NCBI GenBank assembly: GCA_013202935.1
Contig: JABMRG010000093.1
Location: 1 to 35,609 of the forward strand
Length of the DNA: 35,609 nt
Source of the DNA: Candidatus Omnitrophota bacterium
Lineage (GTDB): Bacteria; Omnitrophota; Gorgyraeia; JABMRG01
Direction: 5' to 3'
The translations under genes and the position numbers were made by a program. Within the stretch, counting starts at the first letter, position 1; each line of letters begins with the position of its first letter. The notes beneath the pieces were generated by a model that saw only the letters and a program-made list of their open reading frames with translations, was not told where the DNA came from and ran no database searches. This document shows positions 2,791-19,771 of this stretch, piece by piece.

Positions 2791-2819
2791 TTGACAAAAG
2801 TAGGTTTTTATGGTATACT
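2791..2819 (+). promoter_or_regulatory. Strong sigma70-type promoter of the surface locus (TTGACA-N17-TATACT with TG extended -10)
   Basis: TTGACA 2791-2796, 17-nt spacer, TGG-TATACT 2811-2819, A-rich upstream tract. 24/30 nt identical to the promoter at 15120-15149. Confidence 0.6.
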
Positions 2820-3127
2820 TATTACACAGTAGGGAATATATTAACTCTAATAGTAGTATAGAGTTATGGAAAATACTAGGAACGGTTAACATGTCAAACC
2901 TAGGGGGCTAGCTATATACGCATATACTATAATATCAATCCAATTATAATTAATCAACATCTTATATTAAGGAGGTGGTTTATCTACTTATAATTATGTT
3001 AGTAAAAGTGGAAATAATCAAAAACGTATAACAAATAACCAATGAATGAAAATAGGAAAAGGAGGAAAGAAAGATGAAATTTCCTAAATTATTCGAAAAA
3101 AATCTAATACGAAAGGAGGTGGAAAAG

Positions 3128-3970
3128 ATGAAGAAGTTGTTATCACTTTTAGTGGCTATCGTGATGGTAGCCTCCACAAGCGGTACGGCATTGGCAGCTT
3201 TTACGTCTGACGGTACTGAGGCATTTACAGCAAGTAGTGGTAGTGTTGGCGGAACTGCTGGTATAAGTGAGCCATTTAGCGCAACATTGAAAAACCTTAG
3301 TGACGATGCAACAGCAACTGATGTTGCCTGGACAGGTGTTGATGCTGGCGATGGTTGGGAAACAGCTGATCAGTATATCGAAGTTACTGGTTTTGCGACA
3401 TACAGCAATTGGGGTATTCAGACATATACAGACAACGAGGATGTTTCAGCAAGCCCGCAGTATACAGGAACAAATAATCCAGCTGGTCTTGTAAGGACAG
3501 ACAGCACAATCTACAACCTACCTGTGTGCTGGAGAACCAAGGCAGGATACTATGATCCAGTTGCAGCAACCTATAGCGATCCTGGTTCTGCTGCTGCTAG
3601 CTCAGAAGAGTTGGAGATAATCCAAGGAAGAGATGGTAACTACACCGTGCTCTATGATGGAGTAACAGGCCATGCGCCAGGTGGAACAGACCCTTATTTT
3701 CCATGGTTCTTTATACTGGATAAGGGTACTGACGATGTAGATGTTACAACTACCGGAGATCAGGCATTTGACGACTATCAGGTAGATGCTACATTTATCG
3801 GATCAGCAGGTTATCACCATGCACCGGGTGCTAGTGAACCACTCAACTTTGCTACACCAAACCACCCGCAGGATAAGTACTATATTTACCTTGGTGCTAA
3901 CTTTACTCTGGCTATACCGGCAAAAACGTATACTACTAACATGTTAACTGTGGAGATGTACCATCTTTAA
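3128..3970 (+). CDS. Protein A: secreted protein of unknown family (candidate major structural subunit of the locus)
   Basis: ATG at 3128 is preceded by AGGAGG (3114-3119). Classic signal peptide MKKLLSLLVAIVMVASTSGTALA|AF. An alternative in-frame ATG at 3074 (GGAGG 3061-3065) would add 18 charged residues. The protein is G/T/S/D/A-rich with no Cys-pair or pilin motif. It is paralogous to residues ~44-311 of the next ORF. Confidence 0.7.
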   Translation: MKKLLSLLVAIVMVASTSGTALAAFTSDGTEAFTASSGSVGGTAGISEPFSATLKNLSDDATATDVAWTGVDAGDGWETADQYIEVTGFATYSNWGIQTYTDNEDVSASPQYTGTNNPAGLVRTDSTIYNLPVCWRTKAGYYDPVAATYSDPGSAAASSEELEIIQGRDGNYTVLYDGVTGHAPGGTDPYFPWFFILDKGTDDVDVTTTGDQAFDDYQVDATFIGSAGYHHAPGASEPLNFATPNHPQDKYYIYLGANFTLAIPAKTYTTNMLTVEMYHL

Positions 3971-3990
3971 TATATAAGATTTTATCCTGG

Positions 3991-4021
3991 TCCTGCCTGA
4001 TGCCTTTTTGGTCAGGCAGGA
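3991..4021 (+). promoter_or_regulatory. Intercistronic GC-rich stem-loop between A and B (10-bp perfect stem, no U-tract)
   Basis: TCCTGCCTGA 3991-4000 pairs with TCAGGCAGGA 4012-4021, with an 11-nt loop. It is part of a larger set of GGCAGGAC / GTCCTGCC repeats spanning 3972-4098. Confidence 0.6.
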
Positions 4022-4139
4022 ATAAGAGGATACATCTTGTGGATCGGGCAGGACTATAGCAGTATAACTGCCGGTAGGCAGGACCGGGAATCTTATATAT
4101 TATTGATGTGTATAGTTATTTAAAGACAAGGAGTAAAAA

Positions 4140-6941
4140 ATGTACTCTATTTATAAGAGTACTACAATTCGGATATGTATACTGATAGGCTGCCTGCTTC
4201 TTTTAGGGTCTGATAAGGTTGAGGCAGCAGGCAAGGCTGCAGCTCGTGTTATAAACACATCAGGCGGGCAGGTTAATGTCGCAGTTAAGAATATAAGCGA
4301 TGATCAACCTGCTGCCGGAGGGCTTATAACCTGGAGCAATATAGAAGCAGGCTTGACTGGCTGGAAAGCCGCTGACCAGTATTTAGAGATATCCCATTCA
4401 GACCTTTCTACTGGCTGGGGCATACAATTTTATACTGACAACGAAGATGGCTCAGCCAATCCAAAATATACCGGAAGTGCAAACCCGGCAGGGCTTATAA
4501 AGACAGGCAATACCTCGATCGTGCTACCTATGGCATGGCGCATGACCGATTCTCTTCTATCGACAGCAGACCTGGAAGATATACAGTTACGTCTTGGTGG
4601 GGAAGGCTTTACTGATTACATGTGGCGCTTCCTAAAGGATAAAAATACCCCGGATGAAAGTCTAATTGGCACAGATGTACGAATAACCGGGTTTAGCCTC
4701 GACCCCATAGTTATTACATTTAATAACGTAACCGGTGTCTTAAGCTATGATATTGAGAGGTGTACGGATTTAATGTCTGGTATATGGGAGCTTGTAGAAA
4801 GTGATTATCCTGCGCAAAGTGGTACGCAGACAGAATGGACAGATCCAGATTCTCTCCCCATCGCTTTTTACAGAGTAAAGGTTGCGGATGCTGTGAGCCT
4901 TATTGATGGAGAGGATTATATCACACTGTGGAACCAGTCAGGTATAGCATGGCATGAATTAGCAAGGGGCCATAATCCTGAAAAAGCGTATGTATATCTG
5001 ACCGCAAAGTTTGATGTAGCTTTAGTGGGTGCGACATATCAGACATCGACCTTAACAGTAGAGTCGTATCATGGAATTTCACAATTTCCGTTTTATGTAT
5101 ATCAGGAAGGCGCACCTGCCATGCAGATGGCGTATGAGCATATAAATGAAAAGATGGACCAGTATTTTCAAACAGGCGAGAAGCGCCTTATAGAAAGTTA
5201 TTCTGATCCATATCCGCCCGGCCCATCGGGTTCTTTAGAAGGTGTTGCGTTTACATATGACAATGCCCTTGCTATATGTGCCTACATGGCAAGACCTACT
5301 GAAGAGAATCTCTCCCGAGCAAGGCTTCTGATAACAAGCCTTATCTGGGCGCAGAATAATGATAGCTTTGCAGACGGAAGATTAAGAGATGCATATGATG
5401 CTACGCAGGAATTTACAGGTTCAGTACCACCTTTAACAGGTACTATGTTTGATAGGTCATACACAGGAAATATTGCCTGGGCTATAAACGCGTTATGCCA
5501 GTATTACAAGAATGCGCCAAATGCCGGTGTAACAGATACAGCCTTTTTAGCAGAGGTACTTCAGGCTGCAGAGGATGCGGGTGATTTTATTCACGCAAAC
5601 TTCTATGATAGCTCGCAGTCCGGTTACTATCTTGGCTTTAACTCAGATGGCACTACCCTAGATGAGTCTAAGTCGACAGAGCATAATATAGCAACCTATG
5701 TTGCATTTTCGCATCTTTATGATATTACAGGTACCGGCAAATGGCTTACAAGGGCCAACAGGGCAAAAGATTTTGTACAGACTATAGCATGGGTTGCTGC
5801 TGACGATAGATATATTTGTGGCTTAAACTCAGATGGTAGCGAGAATACAGATAGTCTTGTTGCAGATGTAAACCTTCTTGCAGTCTTAGCTCTAGGTGAT
5901 GCGCAAAGAGCTGATAATGATATCTCAGAGACAATAGAGTATGTTAAAGAGACCTTTGAGACTGAAGAGGGAGTTGCAGACTCAATATCAATAGAAGGTA
6001 TAGATTTCGGATATAATATATATAATAGCCCAATAGAGCCTGATGGCATCTGGTTTGAAGGAACCGCGCAGCTTGCGCAGGCATATAAGGTAGCTGGCAA
6101 CTATGGTCTTACCGATAATTCTGACACCTATCTTGAGTCTATAAAACTAGCACAATATCATGATTTCTGGACTGAAGACTACAACGAAAATTTAACCTCA
6201 AATTATAAAGGTATTCCAGCAGCATCAAAACCAGTAGCAGAAAATGGAACAGATGGCGGCATAACAACAGGGCTTGACTACTCTTATTTTGCAAGCGCCC
6301 ATATAGCACCTACAGCATGGTTTGTGGCTACGACACTAGACTATAATATGCTCTGGGGCAGCGCATTAGATGCTGATGTTCCTTCTCCAGGAGACAATAT
6401 AAACTTTACAGCAGACCCAGCTACTCTAATTAATGATAATACATATTTAGAGAACCGCTATATGCCATCCGGATGGATGAATGTTTCAGATAATATGTAT
6501 ACAGACCCAAGAAGCACTGATACAGACTATGGAGATACCTGTTTCAAGATACATTTTACCGGTACCGCAGGAAGCAATGATCAGTACTGGTGTGGCCTGG
6601 TATGGCAGGAACCGGAAGGCGAATGGAATGGGGGAGTTAATAAGGGCTATGACCTGACAGGCGCTACGGAAATGAAATTTAGGGCAAAGGCAAGCGAGGA
6701 TACTCTCGTAAGATTCTATTTAGGATATGCGGGCGATTCATGCAGCATTATACCAATAAATGCTATCGAACAATTTAGGAGCCTTAATACCAGCTGGCAA
6801 GATATAACATTGAGTTTGGAAGACCCCGAGCAGCCAGGCGTTATGCTTGATATGTCGCATGTATCTAATGGCTTTACTATTGTCGCAGGCTCAGAAGAAG
6901 TAGATGTATATATAGATGATATAAGGTATACTTCTGACTAA
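4140..6941 (+). CDS. Protein B: exported 933-aa multidomain protein with an A-like N-terminal domain, a helical-repeat (alpha/alpha-toroid-like, glycosidase-like) region and a C-terminal CBM-like beta-sandwich
   Basis: AAGGAG at 4128-4133 lies 6 nt before the ATG. Hydrophobic N-terminus with a possible lipobox (ILIGC) or cleavage after VEA. Residues 78-134 are 32/57 identical (ungapped) to protein A residues 80-136. The centre has repeated helix-pair motifs (AFTYDNALAICAY, NIAWAINALCQYY, STEHNIATYVAFSHLY, VNLLAVLALGD). The C-terminus (...CFKIHFTG..YWCGLVWQ..MKFRAK..VYIDDIRYT) looks like a galactose-binding-like/CBM fold. Confidence 0.6.
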   Translation: MYSIYKSTTIRICILIGCLLLLGSDKVEAAGKAAARVINTSGGQVNVAVKNISDDQPAAGGLITWSNIEAGLTGWKAADQYLEISHSDLSTGWGIQFYTDNEDGSANPKYTGSANPAGLIKTGNTSIVLPMAWRMTDSLLSTADLEDIQLRLGGEGFTDYMWRFLKDKNTPDESLIGTDVRITGFSLDPIVITFNNVTGVLSYDIERCTDLMSGIWELVESDYPAQSGTQTEWTDPDSLPIAFYRVKVADAVSLIDGEDYITLWNQSGIAWHELARGHNPEKAYVYLTAKFDVALVGATYQTSTLTVESYHGISQFPFYVYQEGAPAMQMAYEHINEKMDQYFQTGEKRLIESYSDPYPPGPSGSLEGVAFTYDNALAICAYMARPTEENLSRARLLITSLIWAQNNDSFADGRLRDAYDATQEFTGSVPPLTGTMFDRSYTGNIAWAINALCQYYKNAPNAGVTDTAFLAEVLQAAEDAGDFIHANFYDSSQSGYYLGFNSDGTTLDESKSTEHNIATYVAFSHLYDITGTGKWLTRANRAKDFVQTIAWVAADDRYICGLNSDGSENTDSLVADVNLLAVLALGDAQRADNDISETIEYVKETFETEEGVADSISIEGIDFGYNIYNSPIEPDGIWFEGTAQLAQAYKVAGNYGLTDNSDTYLESIKLAQYHDFWTEDYNENLTSNYKGIPAASKPVAENGTDGGITTGLDYSYFASAHIAPTAWFVATTLDYNMLWGSALDADVPSPGDNINFTADPATLINDNTYLENRYMPSGWMNVSDNMYTDPRSTDTDYGDTCFKIHFTGTAGSNDQYWCGLVWQEPEGEWNGGVNKGYDLTGATEMKFRAKASEDTLVRFYLGYAGDSCSIIPINAIEQFRSLNTSWQDITLSLEDPEQPGVMLDMSHVSNGFTIVAGSEEVDVYIDDIRYTSD

Positions 6942-6958
6942 AATATGAGGAAGGCAAG

Positions 6959-7735
6959 ATGAGAGTCTTTAATATACTGTTTATAGCAATGATGATTATG
7001 GCAACAGCAGCAGCTAATGCTGAGGCAGGGGTATTAGTTACCCCTGATAGGCATATTCTGGAACTTTCACCTGGTGAAGAAAAAGCAGTCGAATATCAGA
7101 TATATAATTCTGGCCCCGACGATCTACACATAACAGTAGACCCTAAAGCGTGGGCAGGCACAAAGGATACAAGATTCTGGATATCCTTAAAAGAAGACAT
7201 GATTGAATTAAAGGCAAACGACACAAAACCACTTAAGGTTACTGTCACTGCCCCGGCAGATGTTAAAGGGGAGATGCTGGCAATGCTGTTTCTCTGTTAT
7301 AAGGAATCAGAAGACTCTGCCTTAAATATAAGGAACGGCATTCCGCTTTATCTTATTATAGAGGGCACAAAAGAGTATGGAGCAGAGATAAAAGATGTAG
7401 GCCTTATATATAAGAAAGAAGCAAAAAAGAAAGATCTAAACCTTGATATCGAGGTTCAAAATACAGGCAATGTGCATATAGTTCCTGATATCAAAGTATC
7501 TATAACGGATGAGAAAGACAAAGAGGTAAAGAGGTTCGTTTTAGAAGAGGCAAAGACCCTACTCCGAGGGCAAGACCATACGTTTTCGCTTATCTGGAGA
7601 TATCCAGGCCTCTCGAATGGGGATTATAAAGTAGTAGCGGAGATAGTATATGGTGATAAGTTGGAGAAGATACGACATATATCAGCATTTAGTTTTAAAG
7701 ATGGAGATATAAAGGTAATAAAGGATGGAGCTTGA
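6959..7735 (+). CDS. Protein C: periplasmic two-domain Ig-like protein, PapD-like chaperone candidate
   Basis: GAGGAAGG lies before the ATG. Signal peptide ...TAAANAEA|GV. The size (258 aa) and N-terminal pattern [29 protein letters not shown] resemble PapD-type fimbrial chaperones (remembered PapD: SLDRTRAVFDGSEKSMTLDISN). The second half ([23 protein letters not shown]) looks like a second beta-sandwich. A plain CARDB/NEW3-type domain pair is an alternative. Confidence 0.4.
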
Positions 7736-7746
7736 GGGATAATATT

Positions 7747-10281
7747 ATGTATACCGCAGCGGAAGTAAAGAGAAGAGGTAAGGCGATCATAGTAAGATGC
7801 ACAAGCATCTTACTAGTCGTAGCAGTATGCCTTATTAATGTGCCTCTGTCTTTTGCTGCGTTTGGTTCAGACGCAAAGGCTACATTTACAGCATCGGTTA
7901 CTATTGGAGGAGGTAGCGACTTTGATTACGATGGTATGCCGGATAATTGGGAGAGTACTTATGGACTAGATTCCTCTGATCCTGATGATGCCCATTATGA
8001 TGGTGATGATGATGGCATAACCAACCGCGAAGAATACCGCATGGGAACAGACCCTACTGTTTCTAATAGCAGTATAGCAGCAACACTCTCAGCCTCATCT
8101 TCAAGTGGCCTACAGCCTATGGATGTTACTCTTACCGCAGGCCCAACAGGTGCTTCAATAGTTAAATATGAGTGGGACTTCGACGGAAACGGCACATATG
8201 ACCACTGGACTTATGCATCTGAAGGAAATACTGCTGCCTATAAATATACCGCAAGTGGAAGCTTTAACCCAAAGGTACGTGTTACAGATACAACAGGCAA
8301 TGCTGGCATAGCAGTTACTACTGTAAACATAACAAGGAATACCGCACTCTCACCTCCAACAGCAACTACTGTTTTGAGCCTTGCAAGCATTACCATTCCT
8401 ACTATACTGGAGCTTGATGGTTCAGGTTCTGATGATGTAGGTGTAGTAAATTACCAGTGGGATACAACAGGAAATGGTGAGTATGACTCATTTTCCAGCC
8501 AGTCAGCAGATATAACCAAAACATATGATGAGACTAATCCCAGGTCATTCAATGCCTCACTAAAAGTTACAGATACAAGCGGCCTATCTGATATAGCCAC
8601 TGTAGGCATAGATATTGATGCCTCGGGCTGGTATGGTTTATATAGCAGGCCGAAGGTATTTCTTAATAGCTATATTATATATGGAACTGCTGGTTCGGCA
8701 GTCTCATTAGGGGGCTATGGCGCACCCGAAGGCGGCAATAGTTTTGGATATGCCAAAAAATTAGAATGGGATTTTGAAGGAGATGGTATATATGACTGGT
8801 CGAGCACAATTGAAAATCCCGGTTGGACAGGATATGCAGATACGTCTCATGTATATGGCGCACCGGGTATATACAGGGCTGTTCTTAAGATTCATACTGA
8901 AGCATTTGTCTCCAGTACAGATAATGTGCTGGTAATCATATCAGATTCAGCTATAACCCCTCCAAAGGCGCTTGCAACCGTTTCTTATAATAGTACTACA
9001 GGCGCTACTTCTATAGGAGGCTACCCTGTTCCTATAAAGGCTAGCTTTGACCACTCAACAGCTTATGCAAACTCAGGTAGTATAGCAAAATATGAGTGGG
9101 ATTTTGATGGAGACAAAAATATAGATTATACAACAACATCATCTGCAGATATTCCTGTGTATGATTACGAGCTATCCGGTTACTATGAAGCCATGTTAAG
9201 AGTAACAGATACAAATGGACTTACAGATACATTCTATATGCCTGTATTTGCATACTATCCTGCTAATTATCAGAGTAATGTTAGCATGCCTACTGAGAAT
9301 ACAAGCATATACGGAAATGCTGTTACGCTTGTAGCTGAAGTATATCCAGATGATGCAGGGGTAAGTAGCGTTATGTTCCAGTATAATGATGGTAGTGGCT
9401 GGATTGATATAGGGCTAGGTACAGCAGCCGCTTCCTATACCGTGGCCTGGGATACTACAGCCTTAAGCGGTTCATATCAGTTACGTGCTGTTGTAAATGG
9501 TGACTATACTGATGCATCATACGCATATAAGATTACTAATATAGAGGTTACGAGTACAAGCCCTGATATATTGGAGAATACAAGTGGTAATACTCATACA
9601 AAACAGGTTGCAGTACCTGCAGATCAGCCGACTGATATTATATTCCCCGACGGTACGCGCATCGAAATACCTGCAAATGCTATAAGCCAGGGCTCTGATG
9701 TTACTGTCACTCAGACTCTTGACGCAGGGATAGGCCAGATAAGCCTTGAGGTCACCGGTATTGATAATTTCCTAAAAGATGTTACAGTCTACTTATACTA
9801 TCCAGATGCCGATAATAACGGCATAGTAGATGGAACAAGTATAGATGAGAACACCTTAGTTGTCGCTTGGCAGAATGATCAGGGTGAATGGGAACGTCTC
9901 TATAATTCTGTAGTGCACCCTGTTGAAAACTATGTATCAGCACAGACTAACCACTTCTCAGGTATCGGATTGATAGGTCTCGGTGGTGTAGCAGCTGCAG
10001 GAGGAGCAAGTGGCGCAGCAGCAAGTTCAGGTAGCACCGCAAGTTATTGCTTTATTGCAACCGCTGCATATGGAACTGCCATGGCTGATGATGTAGTTAT
10101 ACTGAGAGAATTCAGGGACAAATACCTTATACGCAATAGCCTTGGAAGAGAGTTTGTATGGAACTATTATCGCTATAGTCCACCGGTAGCTAAGTTTATA
10201 AGTAGAAGGCCGGTTCTTAGAAAGATTGCAAGAATATTACTTAAACCGCTTGTTAGACTTGCCAGAAGGATGGTGAGGTAA
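7747..10281 (+). CDS. Protein D: large exported adhesin-like protein with a calcium-binding TSP3-like motif, 4 PKD domains, an Ig-like region, a Gly/Ala/Ser linker and a CFIATAAYG-type C-terminal domain
   Basis: I prefer the ATG at 7747 (GAGGG 7735-7739) over the TTG at 7732. Signal peptide ends ...PLSFA|[14 protein letters not shown]...[19 protein letters not shown] at 7918-8055. Four W-D-F/T-D/x-G-D/N-G repeats ([48 protein letters not shown]) typical of PKD domains. C-terminal [27 protein letters not shown]... at 10048-10278. Confidence 0.7.
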
Positions 10282-10282
10282 G

Positions 10283-10987
10283 ATGAGACGACTATATATT
10301 ATTTTACTTGTTATTGCATTAAGCTTGCCGGTCTCTATATCTATGTCTGAGGCGACTCAAGAAAGAAGCTCAGATACATTGAGGCCTTCTGCATCTATGT
10401 CCCATCTTAAGTTAAAAGGCACGCTCTTTACGAGAAGCTTAAAACCTTTAGTAGTCTTGGAAGATACAAGAAACGGCAGAGCCACTATGTATGAGATAGG
10501 CGATACAATAGAAGGCGTTTTAAAGATCGCATATATAACAAGGGGAGAGGTAACATTTGCCTCATCAGATGGCGAGTATAAACTCTCTTTACCTACAGGT
10601 GGGGTATGGCAGCCACAGGGCCTTCAGTCTGAAGATGAAAAATGGTATAGGATAAAGAAAGAAGGTAATACGTTCTTGGTTGATGAATCTACTGTAAAAG
10701 GTGCAATCCAGAGGACAGCAGATATAATGCGCAATATAAAGATAAGCCCGTATCTCAAGGATGGCAAAAAAATTGGAATTATGGTAACCAAGCTTACAGA
10801 AATAGGCATACTAAAAGAGGCAGGAGTAAAAGAGGGCGACATTGTTAAGAGTATAAACGGGCTTAACCTAAACAGCCCTCACCAGATCTTTACAGCATAT
10901 AAGAAGCTAAGAAATCAGAAGGAGATAGAGGTAGATATTATAAGGAAGGATAAACCCATTATTCTTACCTATCGTATCCAGCAGTAG
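10283..10987 (+). CDS. Protein E: GspC/PilP-like adaptor (N-terminal anchor + HR-type beta domain + PDZ domain)
   Basis: Starts 1 nt after the D stop. N-terminal hydrophobic segment. LKLKGTLFTRSLKPLVVLEDTRNGRATMYEIGDTIEGVLKIAYITRGEVTFASSDGEYKLSL follows the T2SS GspC HR-domain pattern. C-terminal GIMVTKL..GILKEAGVKEGDIVKSINGLNLNSPHQ is a PDZ pattern. Confidence 0.6.
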   Translation: MRRLYIILLVIALSLPVSISMSEATQERSSDTLRPSASMSHLKLKGTLFTRSLKPLVVLEDTRNGRATMYEIGDTIEGVLKIAYITRGEVTFASSDGEYKLSLPTGGVWQPQGLQSEDEKWYRIKKEGNTFLVDESTVKGAIQRTADIMRNIKISPYLKDGKKIGIMVTKLTEIGILKEAGVKEGDIVKSINGLNLNSPHQIFTAYKKLRNQKEIEVDIIRKDKPIILTYRIQQ

Positions 10988-11152
10988 AAAATGTTCCCGT
11001 CTCCAAAAAAAGTCCTAAATTTAGTAAATAATTATTGATAGGACTTTATCTTTATGTTATTCTTAGTATAGTAAATATATACTCGGTGGAATCGGTGGAT
11101 GAACAAGGGGAGAGCCTTCGAGTATGCTCCCTTTTTGTTTTGTGGATAATTT

Positions 11153-14100
11153 ATGAGAAATAGAAGAAAATTAATAGCATTAACAACCCTAACTATCCTT
11201 GTGCTTATTGCCGTATCTTCTAATGCAGAGGCAAAGGAAAATAGCCATTTTACCCCATGTCAGTATAAAGCATCTTATAGGTACTATATGGAGAAGGGCG
11301 AGGGTTATCTTAAGGATAACCAGCTTGAATCAGCGCTTCTTTCCTATGAGAGGGCTCTTATAATACAACCCAATTCTGAAGAAGCTCAATTAAAGATAAT
11401 ATCTGTAAAGGAGATGATAGGCGGTAAGAAACCAGCGCATGTGATGCAGGAGCGCACAAAGGCTCTTAGGCGTGCTATTGCATTTGCGGAGGAAGTACCG
11501 GAGGAAGAAAGGCCAAGTAGACAGGTTGTATCAAGCGTATCAGAAGAAGTTTATAAACCGAGACCAAAAAGAGTCTATAAACCAGCACCGGAACATAAAC
11601 TTACGCCAGAGCCAAGCACCAAAGAGGAGCTGTCACAGCCGCAGCAATATCCTAAAAGAGCCGCCACAAAAGAGGCTGTTAAGCAATACCCAAGACCAGA
11701 AACAGTAGAAAAAAAACCTGCTAAAGTAGAACGTTCTGCACCAAAACCGGATCCATCCAAAAAGTACCCAGCTTCTATAGAAGAATGCGGCGAACCAGAA
11801 CCAGAGATAGATCTAGCCCAGAAATATCCTTCCGCAGCGCCATGTGAGCCTTGCGTAGAAGAGGCTGGGCCTTGTGAAGTACCTTACTTTGACGCTTTTT
11901 CAGACGGCATAAATTCAAAGATACAACAGTGGGGAGATAGCGCAAACAGCGCCATTGCTCCGTCGAGAATAAGGGGAAAATACCGCATAGCTTTTGGAGC
12001 CACTGAGGATGATTTTGAATGGAAGAATGCAAACGCTGATTACCATAGCTTTTCTGATGATACAAGCTGGAGATATGTATTTGGCCGCAACAGGCATAAC
12101 AGTTATGACCCGGAGATATATTCACGCCTTCAGGTAGAGATTGATAATCCTATAACAGATAGCCTAAGCACTTATAATGAGATAGTTATAGATCCATGGA
12201 CATTTGTAGGAAGAAAGAGGATGTTTGTAACCGGCTCAAACGGTGACAATGTTGAGATGGACCTTAAGTACTGGTCAAACGTAAGGCGTACTATAAATGA
12301 ATCATATAGGACTACCACAGGTGATATCTTAAATATTCAGGAAAATAAGGTTATAGATGGAAAACTCTCGTCTCAAAGTTATGGAGGAAGTGCTGGTTTT
12401 GGCTCGAATCGTTTTCAGGTAGCTGACCATGAGATAGACAGGATGTATGTTCCTTTACGTAAATCCTGGATAGAATATGATAAAGAGCCTTATCGAGCAA
12501 AACTATTTTTTATGTCAAACCAGGATGAGGCCTTAACATCCGACGATCCTATGGGCCTATCCAACCGCAGGGTTTATTGGGAACAGAGCCCCTGGCTTGA
12601 CAGATATGACCAAAGCCGCGTATTTGAACGAAACGGTACTTCTGCCCCTGCAGGTTTTGACAGGACAACGGAGCCTACTAAGAAAGGCCAATGGCTAAGT
12701 AGCCAGTCATTTATGGCCAGAGACAGCGAAGCAGAACGGCTGACATTCCTAAGAGGCGCATCATTTAATGCAGAGTTTGAAAATGGTGCTTCAGTACAGG
12801 CTGTTGCAGCTACACCAAGGAACCTCTGGGATACATACGACCAGGCGACAAGTCTTCCTGCTGCTATAAGGGCAAAAGCCCCTCTGACTGATAAGCTTGA
12901 TATAGGAGGACTATATACATTAAAGATGGGTTTCAGGCACAATTCAGCTGAAGCGTTCAATAATCTATTTGCTATTGATGCCTCTTACGAGCTATTTCCA
13001 CGTACAGACTTGATTGCAGAAGGGGCTGTAAGCCATATGAGTGTAGAAGAGGCTATAGGATACAAAAATGAATATACAGGCTATGGCGCGATGCTGGGAA
13101 TCAGAAATCAAGGCCCTATGAAAATAATGGGTCCGCTGGACAGATATGAACTTGAGGCAAAGTTTACACATATGGATGATAAATTCTTTCCCGCCCTTTC
13201 CAACTATAGGCTGACGAGGAAAGAGTTTGATTATTCCAAGCATATCTATTTTGGTGACCTAACAGGTGAAGATGAGGCCCTAAAGGTAGGCGATGGTGTT
13301 GATGTAGGAAGAAATGCCTTTGGGATTACACTAAAGACATTCTTTCCTGATGCAAACAGTGAGGCAAGGTTTGATGCCAGGACTGTTCACGAAGATGGAG
13401 GGGCATTTATAGAGAATGTCTTCAGGGGAGAGACAACGCATATTCTTACTCCGAAACTTACAGCAAAGCTTCTCGGATATTACCAGCATCTTGGGAAGAC
13501 AGAAAGGCATGTTGACCCGTTTATAAACGCCAAGAGCGCATACAGCGCGTTTACAGACTATTTTTCATACGAGGATACATGGCTTGAAAACACTATAATA
13601 CAAGCAGGCGAAGACCCTTCAATCGGATCGTTCTCCGGTGGGCTGCAGTATGATTTTACAGATTATTTTACAGGTATGGGCATATACGAGTCTACAAATG
13701 ACCCGAAGGATATGCCAAGAGGCCTCTTAAATGATACGTATATTACAGATGAGTATAGAGACGGTGTTATATGGGATAAACTAGTTCCGTTTTTATATGA
13801 TCAGGGTTTCTTTGATCTACCTCCATACGACTACTATAATGTATTCAAGACGAGATTTGCCTATAAGCCGTTTGATCCTGTAACAGTTGCTCTTAAATAT
13901 GTCTGGAATGACAATAAGTATGCTATGGCAATAGATGATTTTGCTACAAGCCATGGCATCGAACTGGGATATGAACCATGTACCAATATAAAATTAGGGC
14001 TTCTATATCAATATACAAGGCAGAGGGATCTTCATAAGGATCTTGATGCAAGTGATCATGGATACCACTTTGATGGCCACCATAATATATTTGCAGCAAT

Positions 14101-15073
14101 GGATTATGAACTGAATGAAGATCAGCATCTTAGGATTATGTATGGGGATTATGTTGGTTATGGTAACCCATATCCTAATGGGTATGATGACATGGCAGCA
14201 CTTGACACCCGTCATATTGTCAGAGTAGTCTACACAGGTGATTGGGGAGGTGCTGATAAATCAAGCAGAGATTCGAGTCTTATGCCTACCAGAAATGAAC
14301 TCGGCCCGCTAAGACCTGATATACCAGGAGCTAAATTTGTAACAAGCCTCTATGCAGGAGGCGTGCAATATCAGGCGAGGGGCAAGGCTGCTGATATAGA
14401 GTCAGATTGGGATAGCTATATTGGCAAAATAGAATTTGGGCTTGATGCCTATGATAAAGAAGCTATAGAGGGTTCTTTAAGGGTCGGCCTATTTACCACA
14501 ATGGAAGATACAGAGAAATGGAGCCTTAGTGGCGCGGAAGAATATCAGGCTAATGATATGGACCTTAGAGGGGCAGATGTTAATTTGAATGTTGGCTGGG
14601 CTATAAATGACCCCGGCAAATATATATCGTTTACACCACTTGTTAATGCTGGGTACAGAAGGATAGAGTTTGAGAGGGCGAATTCCATTGCTTTAGGAGC
14701 CTCCCCTACACAAATCGGAGAGGTTGACCAGCACTTTAATGTATCATTTGCTGGTATAGGTGGAAGGTTAGATCTTGCATTTGCTGAGCCACTCAATTTC
14801 TACGGAAGCGGTTATTGGGCACCTCTTGTATATGCTCATATTAACAATGATGAATTAGGAAGATTTGATTGCAATAAGGGCGTTGTATGGCATGCTGAAG
14901 GCGGCTGTGAATACAATGTTTCTGATAGATTTGATATAAGCTTAGGCGGATTCTGGGACCTGCAAAGCCTTGATAGGACAGAGAGGATAGATGCAGGAAT
15001 ATTGAGCTCAGAAATCCCGGATAATAAGCTTCAGACATATGGTGTAAAATTAGGCGGTTTTTATAAGTTTTAG
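11153..15073 (+). CDS. Protein F: 1306-aa outer-membrane beta-barrel candidate with an N-terminal TPR-like helix pair and a Pro/Lys/Glu-rich spacer
   Basis: Signal peptide ...VSSNAEA|KE. TPR-like YLKDNQLESALLSYERALIIQPNSEEAQ. Low-complexity spacer at 11489-11890 with four [KQ][KQ]YP motifs and a 4-Cys cluster. About 1050 aa rich in alternating aromatic/Gly/Asp/Asn beta-strand patterns. The C-terminus ...YGVKLGGFYKF ends in Phe, the typical OMP beta-signal. No POTRA, secretin or usher motif recognised by eye. Confidence 0.55.
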   Translation: MRNRRKLIALTTLTILVLIAVSSNAEAKENSHFTPCQYKASYRYYMEKGEGYLKDNQLESALLSYERALIIQPNSEEAQLKIISVKEMIGGKKPAHVMQERTKALRRAIAFAEEVPEEERPSRQVVSSVSEEVYKPRPKRVYKPAPEHKLTPEPSTKEELSQPQQYPKRAATKEAVKQYPRPETVEKKPAKVERSAPKPDPSKKYPASIEECGEPEPEIDLAQKYPSAAPCEPCVEEAGPCEVPYFDAFSDGINSKIQQWGDSANSAIAPSRIRGKYRIAFGATEDDFEWKNANADYHSFSDDTSWRYVFGRNRHNSYDPEIYSRLQVEIDNPITDSLSTYNEIVIDPWTFVGRKRMFVTGSNGDNVEMDLKYWSNVRRTINESYRTTTGDILNIQENKVIDGKLSSQSYGGSAGFGSNRFQVADHEIDRMYVPLRKSWIEYDKEPYRAKLFFMSNQDEALTSDDPMGLSNRRVYWEQSPWLDRYDQSRVFERNGTSAPAGFDRTTEPTKKGQWLSSQSFMARDSEAERLTFLRGASFNAEFENGASVQAVAATPRNLWDTYDQATSLPAAIRAKAPLTDKLDIGGLYTLKMGFRHNSAEAFNNLFAIDASYELFPRTDLIAEGAVSHMSVEEAIGYKNEYTGYGAMLGIRNQGPMKIMGPLDRYELEAKFTHMDDKFFPALSNYRLTRKEFDYSKHIYFGDLTGEDEALKVGDGVDVGRNAFGITLKTFFPDANSEARFDARTVHEDGGAFIENVFRGETTHILTPKLTAKLLGYYQHLGKTERHVDPFINAKSAYSAFTDYFSYEDTWLENTIIQAGEDPSIGSFSGGLQYDFTDYFTGMGIYESTNDPKDMPRGLLNDTYITDEYRDGVIWDKLVPFLYDQGFFDLPPYDYYNVFKTRFAYKPFDPVTVALKYVWNDNKYAMAIDDFATSHGIELGYEPCTNIKLGLLYQYTRQRDLHKDLDASDHGYHFDGHHNIFAAMDYELNEDQHLRIMYGDYVGYGNPYPNGYDDMAALDTRHIVRVVYTGDWGGADKSSRDSSLMPTRNELGPLRPDIPGAKFVTSLYAGGVQYQARGKAADIESDWDSYIGKIEFGLDAYDKEAIEGSLRVGLFTTMEDTEKWSLSGAEEYQANDMDLRGADVNLNVGWAINDPGKYISFTPLVNAGYRRIEFERANSIALGASPTQIGEVDQHFNVSFAGIGGRLDLAFAEPLNFYGSGYWAPLVYAHINNDELGRFDCNKGVVWHAEGGCEYNVSDRFDISLGGFWDLQSLDRTERIDAGILSSEIPDNKLQTYGVKLGGFYKF

Positions 15074-15119: not shown

Positions 15120-15148
15120 TTGACAAAATAGCGGTTTTCTGGTATACT
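15120..15148 (+). promoter_or_regulatory. Sigma70-type promoter of the G-H unit (TTGACA-N17-TATACT with TG extended -10)
   Basis: TTGACA 15120-15125, 17-nt spacer, TGG-TATACT 15140-15148. 24/30 identical to 2791-2820. Confidence 0.6.
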
Positions 15149-15227: not shown

Positions 15228-16817
15228 ATGAACAGAGCATATAAATATATTATATCCTATATTACTATAGTATATATAGTATCTTCATCTATTGTTGTAC
15301 CCTCCTATTCCCAAGAGCCCATACAGACTATAGATAACCTTGCTGAGTTAGTACCTGCAACCTACGGTTCGATAAGAGATAGCTATTTTGCAGGCGGAAA
15401 TCACGGCATAATAGTACATATACAAGACCTACACTGCAATTATGATGCACAGATGTCTATATATCATATTATAGATGAGCTTATAGAGAAATACGGCCTT
15501 GACCTTGTCACAGTAGAAGGTTCAGTAGGTAAGCTTGAGAAGACAGCCCTTTCTCATTATCCTAATAAACATATAAAAGAAGAAGTTGCAAAGTATTTTA
15601 TTAAGATAGGCAGGATAAACGGCCCCGCCTATGCGCATGTGATGCGTAATGCAAATTTCAGTTTTTATGGTGCAGATAATAAGAAGCTGCATAAGGATAA
15701 TGTAGAGGCATTTAAGGCATCACTTAAATCAAAAGATACTAATATTGTTTTCCATAATAACATAAGTTCAATAATCGATGATTTTAAATCCAAGGCCTAT
15801 TCCAAGGATTTAAAGGAGCTCGATAATAAGATAAATGCGTATAAGAATGAGAATCTAGACTTTTCAGAGTATATAGGATATTTAAGAGGGCTCTTGGGTG
15901 CACACAAGATAGACAATAAAGAATACCCAAACTTTATAGGGCTCAATAAGGTTCTTGAACAAGAGGCTGCAATAGACTTCTTAGAGGTGGATAACCAACG
16001 TTCAGCATACATAGGTAAACTTAATGAGGTATTGGAGAAGAATGAGCTCTCAGAGCTTCTTGATAATAGCCTATACTTTAAGACAGGCAAATTAAGCGCC
16101 CTATCATTCTATACATATCTAAGAGCATTGTCAGAAAAAGATAATACCCCTGCTATGGACGAAGAGTTTGCCCAGCTTGCAAAATATATCGATTACCTGA
16201 CACTCTATTCTGAGATAGAAAATATCACCCTCTTCAAAGAGATTGAGCAATTAGAAAAGGCCCTTAAGGAGAAGATGTTCAGGAATCATACCGAGCGCAC
16301 GATTGACAAGATAGCCTATAATTTAGGGGTATTAAAGGATTTATTCAATCTAAAGCTTACCAAAGAGACGCTTCAACACTACAGAGACAACAGAAAAGAG
16401 TTTATGGCCTCATATTTTATTAATTTCATATCAGAGAACGCACCAAGATACAAAATAAAGTATAAACTTGATCCTGTATTCAGAAAATTAGACGCACAGC
16501 TTCCAGATTTTGAGAGATTCTATTCTTTAGCAGAGGAGAGAGACAGTGCCCTTGTATATAATACTCTGAAGAAGATGAATGAGAAAAGATCCAAGATGGC
16601 GGTATTGGTATCAGGCGGTTTCCATACAGATGGCATAACAAGGCTTTTGAAAGATAAAAAGGTTTCTTATGTAGTAATTACACCTAAGGTGGATAAACTA
16701 CAAGAAGATAATCCATATAGATCGGTCATTCTCGGTGAAAAAGACCCGCTAGATGAATTTTATGAAATGTATCTAAAAAACATAACAGAAAGCAAGCAAG
16801 GAGAAAAAAATGAATAG
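15228..16817 (+). CDS. Protein G: membrane-anchored or exported protein, TraB/GumN/ChaN (Tiki) superfamily-like, with a large helical insert
   Basis: GGAAGGAAGGG lies before the ATG. Hydrophobic N-terminus. The N-terminal motif GIIVHIQDLHCNYDAQ...GLDLVTVEG and the C-terminal motif ERDSALVYNTLKKM...MAVLVSGGFHTDGITRLL resemble the two conserved halves of TraB/GumN/ChaN-type proteins (G-x-x-H...E and RD...G-x-G-H). Assignment is by remembered motif pattern only. Confidence 0.35.
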   Translation: MNRAYKYIISYITIVYIVSSSIVVPSYSQEPIQTIDNLAELVPATYGSIRDSYFAGGNHGIIVHIQDLHCNYDAQMSIYHIIDELIEKYGLDLVTVEGSVGKLEKTALSHYPNKHIKEEVAKYFIKIGRINGPAYAHVMRNANFSFYGADNKKLHKDNVEAFKASLKSKDTNIVFHNNISSIIDDFKSKAYSKDLKELDNKINAYKNENLDFSEYIGYLRGLLGAHKIDNKEYPNFIGLNKVLEQEAAIDFLEVDNQRSAYIGKLNEVLEKNELSELLDNSLYFKTGKLSALSFYTYLRALSEKDNTPAMDEEFAQLAKYIDYLTLYSEIENITLFKEIEQLEKALKEKMFRNHTERTIDKIAYNLGVLKDLFNLKLTKETLQHYRDNRKEFMASYFINFISENAPRYKIKYKLDPVFRKLDAQLPDFERFYSLAEERDSALVYNTLKKMNEKRSKMAVLVSGGFHTDGITRLLKDKKVSYVVITPKVDKLQEDNPYRSVILGEKDPLDEFYEMYLKNITESKQGEKNE

Positions 16818-19413
16818 GACAAAAGTTATAATTGGAATACAAGCAATCTTTTTAGTGGGCGTGCTTATATTTGGAGGCGGATTAACCTATAACCATGCGG
16901 TTACTCCAGCAGAAAGCACAGGAGCTGTGAATATGCTCGGCCCGATTCTTAGAGGAGCGGAGCTAGAGACAGGTGACACAGCTCGATCTCTTATTGAAGC
17001 GCAAGAGCAGGCTCTGCTTACGTTTATCGGACAACTTGACAGTGGTACGCTACCTGCTGATGTAGAGCGCATTAACATACCTGACGGACAACAAGCTGCT
17101 AGAGTACAAGCAGGAGATCGTGAATTTGCTGTTACTACAGCACCTATAGCCATAGAGAACCTGCCTACAACAGAGGCATTAGCTGGCAGGGCAGCTCTTA
17201 TAAAGGCATCTGCTGCTGGCCAGGTGACATTTGGACAGGATCACGAGTTATTTATTGACCTTTATGGTCAGTATGAACGAGGCGTAAACGAACAGGGTGT
17301 AGTATCTTTAACTACCCAAGATGGGAATGGACGCGTTGATATTCTACCTGCTGCTCAAGCCCGAATTATGGGACTTACTACTCAAGGTGCAGAGGGCAGA
17401 AACATAGTATGGCTCGACAGAGGCCTTCTTAGGAGATTTGCTGACGGTGAAAGAGAACAACATATAAATGCTATTGGTGGTCTTTGGCGATTCTGGGTTC
17501 ATCCTGAAGGTGGGCCAAATGCCGTATTCTTCCCAGAGAACCTACCTGTAGCAGAGCAAGAATTTGAACAGTGGCAGACACCCGCTGGTATAGATAGTAT
17601 ACCATTTTCTGTGGTTCCAAATTCAGTGACATCTAATCAAGCCAGTTTTGCGAGTCGTGTTCAGATTGTCAATACAAAGGGTACCAGGTTTGATGTTCAG
17701 TTAGGCCGCACAGTTACAGTCTTAGAGCGAGATGCCATTGAAGAGATCTTAGGAGTTCAATTACCTGACACTGTTACTGCTTCAGCATTCAAGACAATTG
17801 ATGTACTTACAAATATGGGGCCTAAGATGAATAAAGAAGATGGCTTGCTTTCTATATGGGGCCTTAGCCAGTTTCCTACATCAGAAAATACATTTAATGG
17901 AATACCTATTTTAGAAGGTCCTGAGAATGAGCTTGGTCGCAGAGTAAGTACATACCCTTCTTTTGGTGCATTAGGGCCTGATCAGCTTGTGACCATAAAA
18001 GGTACAGATATTGTAACAGGTAAGGATGTTAGCGTACATGTCTTTAAAGGACATGGCCAACAGCGACGCAAGATGGGAGTTACACCAGCTCGCGCGTTAC
18101 AGGTCGCAGCTAACTGGTCTGCAGATACCGGGATCTTTAATCTTCTTAAATATAATAAGCCAAGAGCAGGTGTTGGCCACATAAACTCTGATTGGGGACC
18201 ACAGGAAAATCCATTTGATGGAGATGAGGTAAACTCCTTTAATGATGGTCCTGGAGATAAAGGTGAGCCACCTGTAGGAAGAGATAGCCCATTCACTGAA
18301 TTTGAAGCTTCTTCTGAAGCTAGAGAGCTTAATACTGGAGAATCTGTAAGCCTTCCCGCTATATCGATAACCTTAGAAGGCCCAGCAGAAGCTATTAACC
18401 CTGCAGCAAAAAGGAATATTTTTGTTAATTTAGCAGACTTAGAAAACGCACCATTTGTCAGAGCTTCTTCAGCTGGTGTAGAGCTTGATACAAGCTTACA
18501 ATTACCAGTTGTAGAAGAAGGAATCTCAGTTCCTGCTCCTTTTACTGTTACTGACGGCGGACTTGTTTTTCAGTCAGCAAACCGACCTATTGGTGCTGCA
18601 ATGGCGATAATTGAAGCAAAGGCAATGATAGATGAAGTAGTGAATGAGACTGAACTGGGTCAACTTGAGGCTATGTGGGACAGTGCAATAGCACAAAATA
18701 CTCAGATAGCAACCCCTGATGCAGAAGCAAATATTCGCGAGGCAGCTAACAGGAACATAAAGTTAGTAGAGCATACCAGAGCTGAGCTTGGAGGCCTAGT
18801 AAGATATGGTCAGCAGTTACAAGGCTTAGAAGGAGTCGCAGGTTACAATGTAACGCCTGTAGTTGCTCAATATAAAGATAAGGTTGTGCCTATCCTGTTT
18901 GATTCAGAATCGGTTTTTGGTGAGTTATATCAATCTGCAAGTTCTGCAACACGTGCGCAATTTGATGCTGAAGTATTGAGGAGACAAGGATGTAAGATAA
19001 TAGTAGTTAACGCAGATAATGATGGGGCCATAGAAGCTGCACTTAGAGCTAATGACGTAAAAACAGCAATAGGTATATCAAGCTCGCAAGAGCGTGCATT
19101 TAATCACCTAAGTGTTTATACGTTAAGTTGCCCGCTTGAAAAAGGGCAGATTACGGCACTCTCACTCCTTGTGATGCGTGCTAAAGTATTATGGTATTTA
19201 ACAGAGATGGGAACTGATGTCCCAGAGCCCATAAGAAGACTAGCTATACAAATGCTCTCTCCAGTAGTTACTGGAAATGATGGAGAAGCAGCTATAAGGC
19301 TGTTTCTAGCAAATCGTATAATATGGATAATCCCAGAAGCTACTGTATACTATGAAGAGGGTCAACTGGAACAGTACCTCATGCAGACTATATTAGCGCT
19401 CAGAGCCGCGTAA
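16810..19413 (+). CDS. Protein H: 867-aa N-terminally anchored protein of unknown family
   Basis: The ATG overlaps the G stop by 8 nt (ATGAATAG). One N-terminal TM segment (IIGIQAIFLVGVLIFGGG). Ala/Gly/Gln/Val/Glu-rich with no motif I recognise. Followed by a strong terminator. Confidence 0.6.
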   Translation: MNRTKVIIGIQAIFLVGVLIFGGGLTYNHAVTPAESTGAVNMLGPILRGAELETGDTARSLIEAQEQALLTFIGQLDSGTLPADVERINIPDGQQAARVQAGDREFAVTTAPIAIENLPTTEALAGRAALIKASAAGQVTFGQDHELFIDLYGQYERGVNEQGVVSLTTQDGNGRVDILPAAQARIMGLTTQGAEGRNIVWLDRGLLRRFADGEREQHINAIGGLWRFWVHPEGGPNAVFFPENLPVAEQEFEQWQTPAGIDSIPFSVVPNSVTSNQASFASRVQIVNTKGTRFDVQLGRTVTVLERDAIEEILGVQLPDTVTASAFKTIDVLTNMGPKMNKEDGLLSIWGLSQFPTSENTFNGIPILEGPENELGRRVSTYPSFGALGPDQLVTIKGTDIVTGKDVSVHVFKGHGQQRRKMGVTPARALQVAANWSADTGIFNLLKYNKPRAGVGHINSDWGPQENPFDGDEVNSFNDGPGDKGEPPVGRDSPFTEFEASSEARELNTGESVSLPAISITLEGPAEAINPAAKRNIFVNLADLENAPFVRASSAGVELDTSLQLPVVEEGISVPAPFTVTDGGLVFQSANRPIGAAMAIIEAKAMIDEVVNETELGQLEAMWDSAIAQNTQIATPDAEANIREAANRNIKLVEHTRAELGGLVRYGQQLQGLEGVAGYNVTPVVAQYKDKVVPILFDSESVFGELYQSASSATRAQFDAEVLRRQGCKIIVVNADNDGAIEAALRANDVKTAIGISSSQERAFNHLSVYTLSCPLEKGQITALSLLVMRAKVLWYLTEMGTDVPEPIRRLAIQMLSPVVTGNDGEAAIRLFLANRIIWIIPEATVYYEEGQLEQYLMQTILALRAA

Positions 19414-19442
19414 TATTCGCAGCTTGAGCAAGTTTTGCCAGG

Positions 19443-19480
19443 GGGGCGGTCCTTTAAGTAGGACCGCCCCTCATTCTTTT
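19443..19480 (+). terminator. Rho-independent terminator of the G-H unit
   Basis: Perfect 10-bp GC-rich stem GGGGCGGTCC 19443-19452 / GGACCGCCCC 19461-19470, 8-nt loop, then TCATTCTTTT. Confidence 0.85.
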
Positions 19481-19675: not shown

Positions 19676-19771
19676 GTAAAGTGTCCCCAGGCTTATTGTA
19701 AAATGTAATGGCCATGTCCATAATTTATTGCAGCTAAATAAGTTATGAGCGAGTGAAACGTCCCCTTTTTT
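19676..19771 (+). repeat. Modular intergenic repeat, copy 3: head 19676-19689, box2 19700-19708, tail 19741-19765, T-run 19766-19771
   Basis: Same box order and spacing as copy 1 (tail 23/25). It forms an imperfect palindrome with copy 2, centred near 19663. Confidence 0.85.

Follow-up and report, generated by a model that had tools for sequence, protein, structure and literature searches.

Closest described systems

Three kinds of described system come closest to a cluster of six co-directional genes, A to F, in DNA of a Candidatus Omnitrophota bacterium (GenBank assembly GCA_013202935.1, contig JABMRG010000093.1; the whole 35,609-nucleotide stretch analyzed is referred to as the window), and by analogy this cluster would work most like a hybrid of them. 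The first are the WxL/Csc clusters of Firmicutes, which encode a small one-domain protein, a large protein carrying the same domain together with binding domains, and a WxLIP-type partner; A, B and C correspond to these in turn, and a role in carbohydrate capture is proposed in both cases. WxLIP proteins have been proposed to bind WxL domains via strand insertion, and those WxL domains are peptidoglycan associated (PMC10599100). [quoted passage not shown] The third are Sus-like polysaccharide utilization loci (PULs) and cellulosomes, with which the locus shares the bringing together of glycan-binding proteins (some of them lipoproteins), glycoside hydrolase (GH) enzymes, a barrel, importers and a cytoplasmic phosphorylase, and the occurrence of a common A-domain on many enzymes resembles dockerin logic.

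Each likeness was accompanied by clear differences. The A-domain was not supported as a WxL domain (PF13731), which was matched by none of 87 members in Pfam and was absent from the PDB and Foldseek matches. C lacks a C-terminal transmembrane (TM) helix as read from its sequence, the host is a diderm, nothing in the WxL/Csc clusters corresponds to D, E or F, and there is no LPXTG protein. Unlike in the T9SS pairs, the anchor of D is a CFI-box-CTERM rather than a CHU_C domain, the barrel protein F has about 1,300 amino acids (aa) and is not of the PorP type, a GspC-like protein is added, and T9SS core genes were not seen. The SusC, SusD, cohesin and dockerin families were missing, and all key components belonged to unannotated families. 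Judged by the features that define those systems, the cluster was not a chaperone-usher system, a type II secretion system (T2SS), a type IV pilus system, a T9SS, a SlpA-type tether or an exopolysaccharide (EPS) exporter. It was built of unannotated families, namely, the A-domain, the F barrel and protein G, which is encoded after F, and no description of these families, of CFI-box-CTERM or of Omnitrophota outer-membrane proteins was found in the searchable literature.

We read the locus as encoding an outer-membrane-anchored appendage for glycan binding or degradation, in which two units, A to D and E to H, have been joined in one Omnitrophota lineage. This reading, drawn from sequence comparisons and models, is held with slightly less than even confidence. 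A first-pass annotation made from the DNA alone had proposed a glycan-binding surface appendage; fusions of the A-domain to GH and carbohydrate-binding module (CBM) domains, co-variation of A with D and a match between anchor and barrel types spoke for that proposal, whereas the PapD-like chaperone that it assigned to C did not hold up. The basic gene structure given there was confirmed: six open reading frames (ORFs) in one direction, signal-peptide-like N-terminal segments in the translations of all six products, short gaps (17 nt for B/C, -4 nt for C/D and 1 nt for D/E) and an F product ending in GGFYKF. Also in agreement with it, Pfam and NCBIfam scans of ORFs from the 35.6-kb window detected no usher, secretin, secretion ATPase, platform protein or prepilin.

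Proteins A to D and the A-domain family

Gene A (positions 3128 to 3970, + strand) encodes a secreted stand-alone A-domain protein of 280 aa counted from its ATG, not 281 aa as first given, and this ATG lies behind a perfect AAGGAGGTG Shine-Dalgarno sequence. The AlphaFold2 (AF2) model of A (pLDDT 93, pTM 0.88) was a beta-sandwich behind a 22-residue unstructured extension at the mature N-terminus. No significant fold match was obtained for this model in the PDB with Foldseek. The best, insignificant matches were CanA, TasA, CfaB and FaeG (E 0.012 or worse, TM-score 0.25 to 0.37), among which the TasA/CanA-type entries 8aur and 9hdi had an E value of 0.012 and a TM-score of about 0.25 to 0.3 and CfaB and FaeG had E values of 0.04 to 0.3. 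A profile of the A-domain, which spans about 230 aa, found 604 clusters at 50% identity among 1.84 billion representatives (413 with E ≤ 1e-10), and no Pfam family was matched by any of the 87 members nor was any PDB match found. These domains occurred in three settings: alone, at the N-termini of B-like proteins, and at the C-termini of proteins of 400 to 1,500 aa, whose passengers were GH2_C/GH72-like TIM barrels, CBM11/30, SusE-like, SGBP-B-like, fn3 and Ig domains.

The genetic contexts of A were examined in metagenomes, in which 75 loci were found; counts were made on the 37 loci with a length of at least 6 kb. C was present in 24 of the 37, usually as the next gene after the A-domain gene, a CBM-like domain in 17, a D-like protein in 13, G in 6, E in 4 and F in 3, and E and F were seen only in window-type arrangements. 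Several loci had duplicates of A. Modules of A to C without F within 10 kb were detected in L123, L124, L128, L148, L151 and L152, and the labels of members of A-domain or A-C loci included Omnitrophota, one Caldisericota metagenome-assembled genome (MAG) and one Elusimicrobia MAG. Overall, these data indicated that A to D form a module that is separate from F and more widespread than F.

Gene B (4140 to 6941, + strand) encodes a protein with an A-domain at residues 24 to 311, an (alpha/alpha)6-like region at 330 to 750 and a CBM-like domain at 750 to 933 (all boundaries approximate). Its N-terminus was paralogous to A (E 1e-25), which bears out the A-like domain first noted. The middle region gave weak AGE and mannose-isomerase matches and resembled a GH76/GH88-like protein of locus L001, and the C-terminal domain was homologous to stand-alone proteins that adjoin F in 47 of 82 loci. 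Assignment of this domain to a defined CBM family was rejected, the signals (CBM30, CBM4_9) being weak, and overall the putative glycosidase and CBM regions of the first-pass annotation received weak support.

Gene C (6959 to 7735, + strand) encodes a secreted two-Ig protein. With a 30-member profile, the sole meaningful PDB match was WxLIP1 of Enterococcus faecium (EfmWxLIP1; E 7.8e-6), which was matched across both Ig domains in order, and in Pfam WxLIP_PGBD was matched by 8 of the 30 family members (best E 1.3e-7) and WxLIP_HBD by 2 of the 30. A PapD-like chaperone was rejected, as neither C nor the 30 family members matched PF00345 or PF02753 in Pfam, and PapD/FimC chains were absent from the PDB profile matches both at E ≤ 10 with a 12-sequence profile and at E ≤ 1 with the 30-sequence profile. 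On this profile evidence, C is a remote homologue of WxLIP (DUF916/DUF3324); the two Ig domains recognized at first sight stand, and the PapD pattern does not.

Gene D (7732 to 10281, + strand) encodes a signal peptide, an A-like N-terminal segment, a stalk of TSP3, three to four PKD domains (four had been counted at first) and an Ig-like domain, a Gly/Ala/Ser linker and the CFI-box-CTERM anchor. The assignments were based on matches to PKD_4 (4e-19) and to NF041770 (CFI_box_CTERM), for which 98 to 102 bits were obtained against a cutoff of 40.

Co-varying N-terminal segments in A and D

After removal of the signal peptide, A and D begin with similar segments, that of A in the window being AFTSDGTEAFTAS, and these shifted together from locus to locus. 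The A and D segments were FQSQSISTFTAQA and FNSLSISTIVAEA in L127, FNTMGISTMAASVS and FTSIAVSTLSAGVS in L146, and TEANTASADLSG and KKPFTASIDLSG in L130. Local alignment of the A and D N-termini gave a mean score of 32.4 for pairs from the same locus versus 22.0 (standard deviation, 7.3) for cross-locus pairs, and the observed sum was reached in 0 of 100,000 permutations, which gives a P value of about 1e-5; the same was true for 11 mutually distant loci. Signal peptides were trimmed by hand for this test, which was also run without trimming. As the two N-termini co-vary, one partner common to both is implied by the sequences, the candidates being an acceptor groove, protein C and a processing enzyme. 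A resemblance of these N-termini to a TasA/SipW-class motif had no NCBIfam match and is kept only as a lead, the usable evidence being the co-variation within loci; the TasA/Peptidase_M73 family was not matched by A in Pfam or NCBIfam, including searches with N-terminal fragments at E ≤ 10.

A sharper form of the appendage proposed at first would be a donor-strand-exchange fibre, a pilus in the strict sense, with A polymerizing by its N-terminal strand, B at the tip, D as terminator or anchor, C as periplasmic chaperone and F with E as the pore. As in chaperone-usher systems, the locus encodes a small secreted subunit that is extended at its N-terminus, another subunit with additional binding domains, a large outer-membrane barrel and a soluble protein of two Ig domains. 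In such a fibre the 22 unstructured residues ahead of a complete beta-sandwich in A, the duplication of A in several loci, its high-expression signals and the co-varying segments of A and D would all have a place, and the top Foldseek matches of A, although insignificant, were all strand-exchange fibre subunits. We nevertheless consider this explanation unlikely. The monomer model of A is already complete and has no obvious missing strand, those Foldseek matches had E values of 0.012 or worse with TM-scores of 0.25 to 0.37, and A-domains at the C-termini of large enzymes have no N-terminal donor strand available. Furthermore, matches to TasA/Peptidase_M73, SipW-class, pilin or PapD families were not found, PapD_N/PapD_C, usher and fimbrial families had no Pfam matches, C is WxLIP-like, and F, which has a TPR head, greatly exceeds an usher in size.

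Pairing of anchor type and barrel type

Anchor domains were sought in the C-terminal 130 residues of D and D-like proteins, 21 in all. CFI-box-CTERM was present in 12 of 12 D proteins linked to F, including that of L085, which has a different gene order. The T9SS type-B CTD (CHU_C, TIGR04131) was present in all 9 D-like proteins from loci with a small barrel, and none of these had a CFI-box. The small-barrel loci are divergent A-C loci in which A, C, a B-like gene and a D-like gene are followed by a barrel of about 320 aa. This barrel was detected in at least 22 loci, passed the Pfam thresholds for UPF0164 and TraF_2 and was weakly similar to PorP/SprF and FadL. The D anchor type was thus partitioned with the barrel type, and this partition is, by analogy, the best available argument that the CFI-box of D docks on F. 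Homology between the small PorP-like barrel and F was tried and rejected: a hidden Markov model (HMM) of the small barrel matched nothing in the window and nothing in the F loci, and hhalign gave probabilities of 2.2% for the F core and 0.3% for the F C-terminal extension.

In the metagenome loci L106 to L158 (for example, L127:2684-5044 and L123:11775-14306), A-C modules contained CHU_C proteins that form pairs with PorP/SprF/UPF0164-like barrels. One of the CHU_C/small-barrel loci was labelled Caldisericota and most were unlabelled. From these pairs, anchoring pairs of the T9SS type may exist beyond the Bacteroidota-type T9SS.

Proteins E and F

Gene E (10283 to 10987, + strand) encodes an N-terminal anchor, an HR domain and a PDZ domain, as was first annotated. 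Residues 24 to 233 matched NF041515 (GspC_delta) with an E value of 6.6e-30 and 105 bits, below the equivalog cutoff of 150, and further matches were to TIGR01713 (E 1.7e-16), the GspC HR domain 7oio (E 1e-3) and the GspC PDZ domain 2i4s (E 2e-6). E is, by these matches, a GspC homologue or paralogue and not an equivalog. When present, it was always at position -1 to F, and a distant relative is the canonical gspC before gspD-gspE-gspF. E is thus encoded directly before an outer-membrane component in the manner of gspC before gspD, but, unlike in a T2SS, F has no secretin or N0 domain, GspE, GspF and pseudopilins were not found in the 35.6 kb, and E falls below the NCBIfam equivalog cutoff.

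Gene F (11153 to 15073, + strand) encodes a predicted giant beta-barrel protein consisting, with domain limits taken from pairwise alignments, of a signal peptide, a TPR region at residues 40 to 85, a Pro/Lys/Glu-rich linker at 90 to 240, a conserved core at 245 to 1030 with a barrel region of some 780 aa, and an optional second small barrel from 1030 or 1060 to 1306 (boundaries other than the last residue are approximate), and it ends in the beta-signal-like KLGGFYKF. The AF2 model of residues 245 to 1306, made with 55 homologues, had a pLDDT of 80 and a pTM of 0.69 and was essentially all beta-hairpins; about 30 strands were estimated from the DSSP list only. Pfam and NCBIfam gave weak, sub-threshold TPR matches (E ≤ 0.1), and the family profile strongly matched TPR chains in the PDB and nothing else. 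Usher (PF00577), secretin (PF00263/N0), SLH and BcsC/PgaA/AlgE models had no match to F. These results were in keeping with the earlier view of F as a barrel that is neither usher nor secretin.

In Foldseek searches the top matches of F were Deinococcus radiodurans SlpA, 8ae1 and 7zgx (E 3e-12, TM-score 0.23 to 0.25, root mean square deviation about 26 Å), followed by TonB-dependent receptors. It had been remarked earlier that F resembles SlpA in outline; this stands as the top Foldseek match, and the TM-score is low and SLH is missing. F could be a tether of the SlpA/OmpM type from outer membrane to wall, with A as an S-layer-like coat, and the N-terminal periplasmic head, the long linker or spacer, the very large barrel and the probable abundance of A are as such a tether would have them. 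We regard this as improbable, given the poor superposition, a TPR head in place of SLH, a glycan-uptake context rather than one of wall tethering, and fusion of A-domains to GH and CBM domains, which is not the habit of a lattice-type family; in addition, BamD, LptE and LolA-like genes in the window are typical of classical diderm envelopes.

The order of TPR and barrel in F, together with a polysaccharide deacetylase gene (19770 to 20414) and a PilZ gene (22474 to 22842) downstream and GH genes nearby, also brought to mind synthase-dependent EPS export of the BcsC/PgaA/PelB type. This is very improbable indeed: neither the window nor the syntenic loci encode a glycosyltransferase synthase, F has about one to two TPR repeats and a far larger barrel without BcsC, PgaA or AlgE Pfam matches, and the neighbors are catabolic (GH94, sugar ABC importer, ROK).

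The last 250 or so residues of F matched 10-strand barrels, with TM-scores normalized to the target of 0.6 to 0.7 for Pla/OmpT and 0.81 for OpcA. At positions 14243 to 15070 the giant core appears to be followed by a disordered link and then by a barrel of 10 to 12 strands like Pla/OmpT/OpcA, an arrangement seen in some lineages only; tandem barrels in one outer-membrane protein chain are unusual. The second barrel was rejected as an adaptor specific to A to E, since L007 has the barrel without A to E and L014, L015 and L084 have A to E without the barrel.

Distribution of F and its coupling to A to E

Relatives of F were sought in one genome per species, and 142 were found; the best 80 were analyzed, as were six more loci retrieved through exact look-up, and neighbors were counted in 82 non-redundant loci. 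The F relatives were nearly all labelled Omnitrophota, a minority having automated labels such as "uncultured Planctomycetia," and F fell into three length classes. A to E or A to D adjoined F in 11 of the 80 species loci, of which 6 were complete, 3 were broken by contig ends, and 2 (L076 and L085) had a short-class F after a sugar ABC transporter, with A, a B-like gene, C and D lying downstream of this F. The window-type order was also present in metagenome contigs L003 to L006, and further loci with A to E and F were L091 to L096, L100, L101 and L153, so that the co-occurrence foreseen by the first-pass annotation was found in related genomes. The neighbors of F in the 82 loci included homologues of the B C-terminal domain (47 loci, many with lipoprotein signal peptides), GH2_C/GH72-like TIM barrels (31), ROK (26), sugar ABC components (about 20) and RND efflux genes (15 to 19). 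In a complete 1.14-Mb genome F lies directly after GH94 and is followed by G homologues and a deacetylase, with no A to E, and the Velamenicoccus F (L055) adjoins regulators and RND efflux genes; proteomic evidence for this Velamenicoccus homologue was looked for and not found. From this distribution and these neighborhoods, F is a phylum-level component in its own right that usually lies among genes for glycan uptake. In a related MAG the F locus (L002:1-1923) adjoins the end of a giant ORF of 21,048 residues. Giant proteins are typical of Omnitrophota.

The conserved block was found to extend past F, beyond the six genes first flagged, through G and H to a strong intrinsic-terminator-like hairpin (19441 to 19472, + strand; 13-bp stem, 10 GC pairs) that closes it. 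Gene G (15228 to 16817, + strand) encodes an anchored protein of 529 aa, identified by synteny with F and with A-C modules, that had no Pfam, NCBIfam or PDB match. Its invariant HIQDLHCNYDAQ, EG and GGFHT motifs suggest a metal site, which may be Tiki/TraB/ChaN-like. In 12 loci, among them L001, where A to E are absent, G comes after F, and in F-less loci it lies about 3 kb downstream of C (E 1e-30 to 1e-77). In some loci, such as L123, G forms the N-terminus of a giant protein of 1,900 aa or more. Gene H (16810 to 19413, + strand) encodes a TM-anchored protein of 867 aa with DUF6786 (PF20583, E 3e-75). Proteins at the position of H in L003, L007, L010, L014, L084 and L163 had in common an N-terminal TM segment, MKxxKxIIxLQVxFLxG, and the C-terminal region, and their middles were very variable, with lengths of 537 to 1,444 aa. 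DUF6786 was seen only in the H of the window, and precomputed Pfam annotation for several counterparts lists none. Overall, F, G and H constitute a conserved trio.

The single six-gene system originally envisaged was not upheld, as most of the 142 F relatives lack A to E and A to C occur elsewhere with a small barrel. A purely positional association should be weighed: F would be a general major porin or envelope tether, A to D a periplasmic, peptidoglycan-associated scaffold in the manner of WxL/WxLIP, and E a component serving a T2SS elsewhere. The F of L055 beside regulators and RND efflux genes, the six loci with A-C modules and no F within 10 kb, the promoter- and terminator-like signals between E and F, and the fact that the only known relatives of C bind peptidoglycan-associated WxL domains (PMC10599100) are all as this explanation would predict. 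It is harder to reconcile with the two arrangements in which A to D adjoin F, lying either upstream of it or, in L076 and L085, downstream, with CFI-box in 12 of 12 F-linked D proteins and 0 of 9 small-barrel D-like proteins, with the finding of E only directly before F, with G linking both units, and with PKD, CBM, SusE-like and SGBP-like passengers, which are typical of surface proteins. We judge it unlikely, although it carries appreciable weight.

Several results weigh against the reading of the locus as one anchored appendage. F is mostly found without A to E and A to C mostly without F in cis, so that the coupling of A to E with F could be lineage specific or merely positional, and the extra C-terminal barrel of F does not track A to E. 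The small barrel and F are non-homologous, and the argument that they have the same role is thus one of analogous position and not of descent. An HMM built from A N-termini retrieved no D significantly, and the regex for the motif common to these two proteins was drawn up post hoc. No relation of the A-domain to the WxL, TasA or pilin families could be detected, and the fibre-subunit matches of A, at E 0.012 or worse, were insignificant.

Proposed assembly

In the appendage that we propose, the first unit, A to D, would be a modular surface assembly. A would be a small subunit made in excess, B the functional subunit with its A-domain, (alpha/alpha)6-like region and CBM-like domain, and C a WxLIP-like assembly partner or adaptor for A-domains. 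D would form the base, its PKD stalk ending in the CFI-box domain docked on the barrel F. As the N-terminal segment of D is of the same kind as that of A, both would be expected to fit one acceptor site, and A and B may attach through contacts of A-domains and N-terminal segments with the help of C. In the second unit, E to H, the TPR head and Pro/Lys-rich linker of F would reach into the periplasm, and E would provide the link from the inner membrane to F, the part that GspC plays for a secretin. F is envisaged as the anchor and probably the passage for the first unit and is a candidate conduit for proteins outward, oligosaccharides inward or both. Released oligosaccharides that enter in this way could then pass to ABC importers and a cytoplasmic GH94 phosphorylase acting on beta-linked disaccharides or dextrins.

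A broader claim is doubtful but worth stating: A, C and D with a dedicated barrel may represent an unrecognized class of filament or complex on the surface of uncultured bacteria from several phyla, with subunits joined via a shared, co-evolving N-terminal strand and assembled with a WxLIP-like partner, and in Omnitrophota a GspC paralogue might feed F, a giant barrel other than a secretin, for both translocation and anchoring of the appendage, which would amount to a new outer-membrane export and assembly route. Omnitrophota are abundant, ultra-small and probably host-dependent bacteria, and to our knowledge there are no isolates. The locus gives candidates for the means by which they attach themselves to partners or to substrates and move large enzymes over the outer membrane: a giant barrel specific to the phylum, a new domain for docking or assembly on hundreds of GH and CBM proteins, and a candidate pairing rule in which CFI-box goes with F and the type-B CTD goes with barrels like PorP. 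This rule could yield the first functional hypothesis for the uncharacterized CFI-box-CTERM. If the coupling proposed for E and F is true, a GspC paralogue with a non-secretin barrel would widen the range of known trans-envelope coupling. Should F prove to be no more than a porin that adjoins A to E by position alone, three large unannotated families, namely, the A-domain, the F barrel and G, would still merit family definitions.

Transcription and RNA signals

A promoter-like site, TTGACA-17-TGgTATACT, was located at positions 2791 to 2819 (+ strand), about 300 nt 5' of A, with an 11/12 consensus match and an extended -10, and a second site of the same type, also with an 11/12 match, was located at 15120 to 15148 (+ strand) before G. 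The two sites are almost identical (TTGACAAAA...TGGTATACT), which suggests that the A and G units are transcribed in coordination. All of these sites are consensus matches only, the whole scan having returned 55 sites versus 47 ± 8 expected from shuffles. The E/F spacer contained a weaker promoter-like site at 11035 to 11063 (+ strand) and, just 5' of the F start, a terminator-like hairpin with a U-run at 11096 to 11140 (+ strand). A near-consensus site is thus present where one strong promoter had been supposed to serve all six genes, but it is accompanied by those at 11035 and 15120 and by the hairpin before F. No known RNA or riboswitch family in Rfam was matched by the 300-nt leader of A.

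Both the A/B and E/F spacers had been described as structured. This was confirmed for the former, in which a long hairpin extends from the A stop codon (3968 to 4100, + strand; minimum free energy, -60.1 kcal/mol; z, -5.35), and folding of the latter was weak (z of -2.3 for the whole spacer). Of 11 related loci, 10 had a hairpin of the same kind 3' of A, even where the spacer sequence was unrelated; A/B-spacer hairpins were detected in L003, L006, L010, L012, L014, L015, L033, L076 and L085, with z values of -4.3 to -8.6. The hairpin may be an mRNA 3' stabilizer or an attenuator that sets A in excess over B to F. Taken together, the hairpin, the perfect ribosome-binding site and the frequent duplication of A fit a subunit that is required in excess.

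Other features of the window

The window is a chromosomal fragment of about 41% GC with nearly all genes on the + strand. The gene to the left of the block (185 to 2641, + strand) encodes a cytoplasmic GH94 glycan phosphorylase (Pfam Glyco_hydro_94, 1e-104; GH94 supersandwich, 1e-67) and is the conserved left neighbor in related loci, in which it lies 5' of A or directly 5' of F. The rest of the window consists of routine envelope and housekeeping genes, for which Pfam analysis identified the polysaccharide deacetylase downstream of the block, ComEA, ComEC, PilZ, BamD, LptE, HolA, MurJ, UvrC and a LolA-like protein, and PrfB, SecA and Lnt were read from translations. A tRNA gene is cut by the window end so that only its 5' part lies within (35564 to 35609; Rfam RF00005, 29.2 bits), and ARAGORN gave no complete tRNA. 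The stand-alone PilZ protein of 122 aa encoded downstream of the block had 88.5% identity to its L003 counterpart versus 46 to 74% for neighboring proteins. In L001, an F locus without A to E, a fusion of PilZ, coiled-coil and (alpha/alpha)6 regions (L001:5430-7367) is encoded beside a CBM-like gene. The PilZ conservation and this PilZ fusion are hints of control by cyclic di-GMP.

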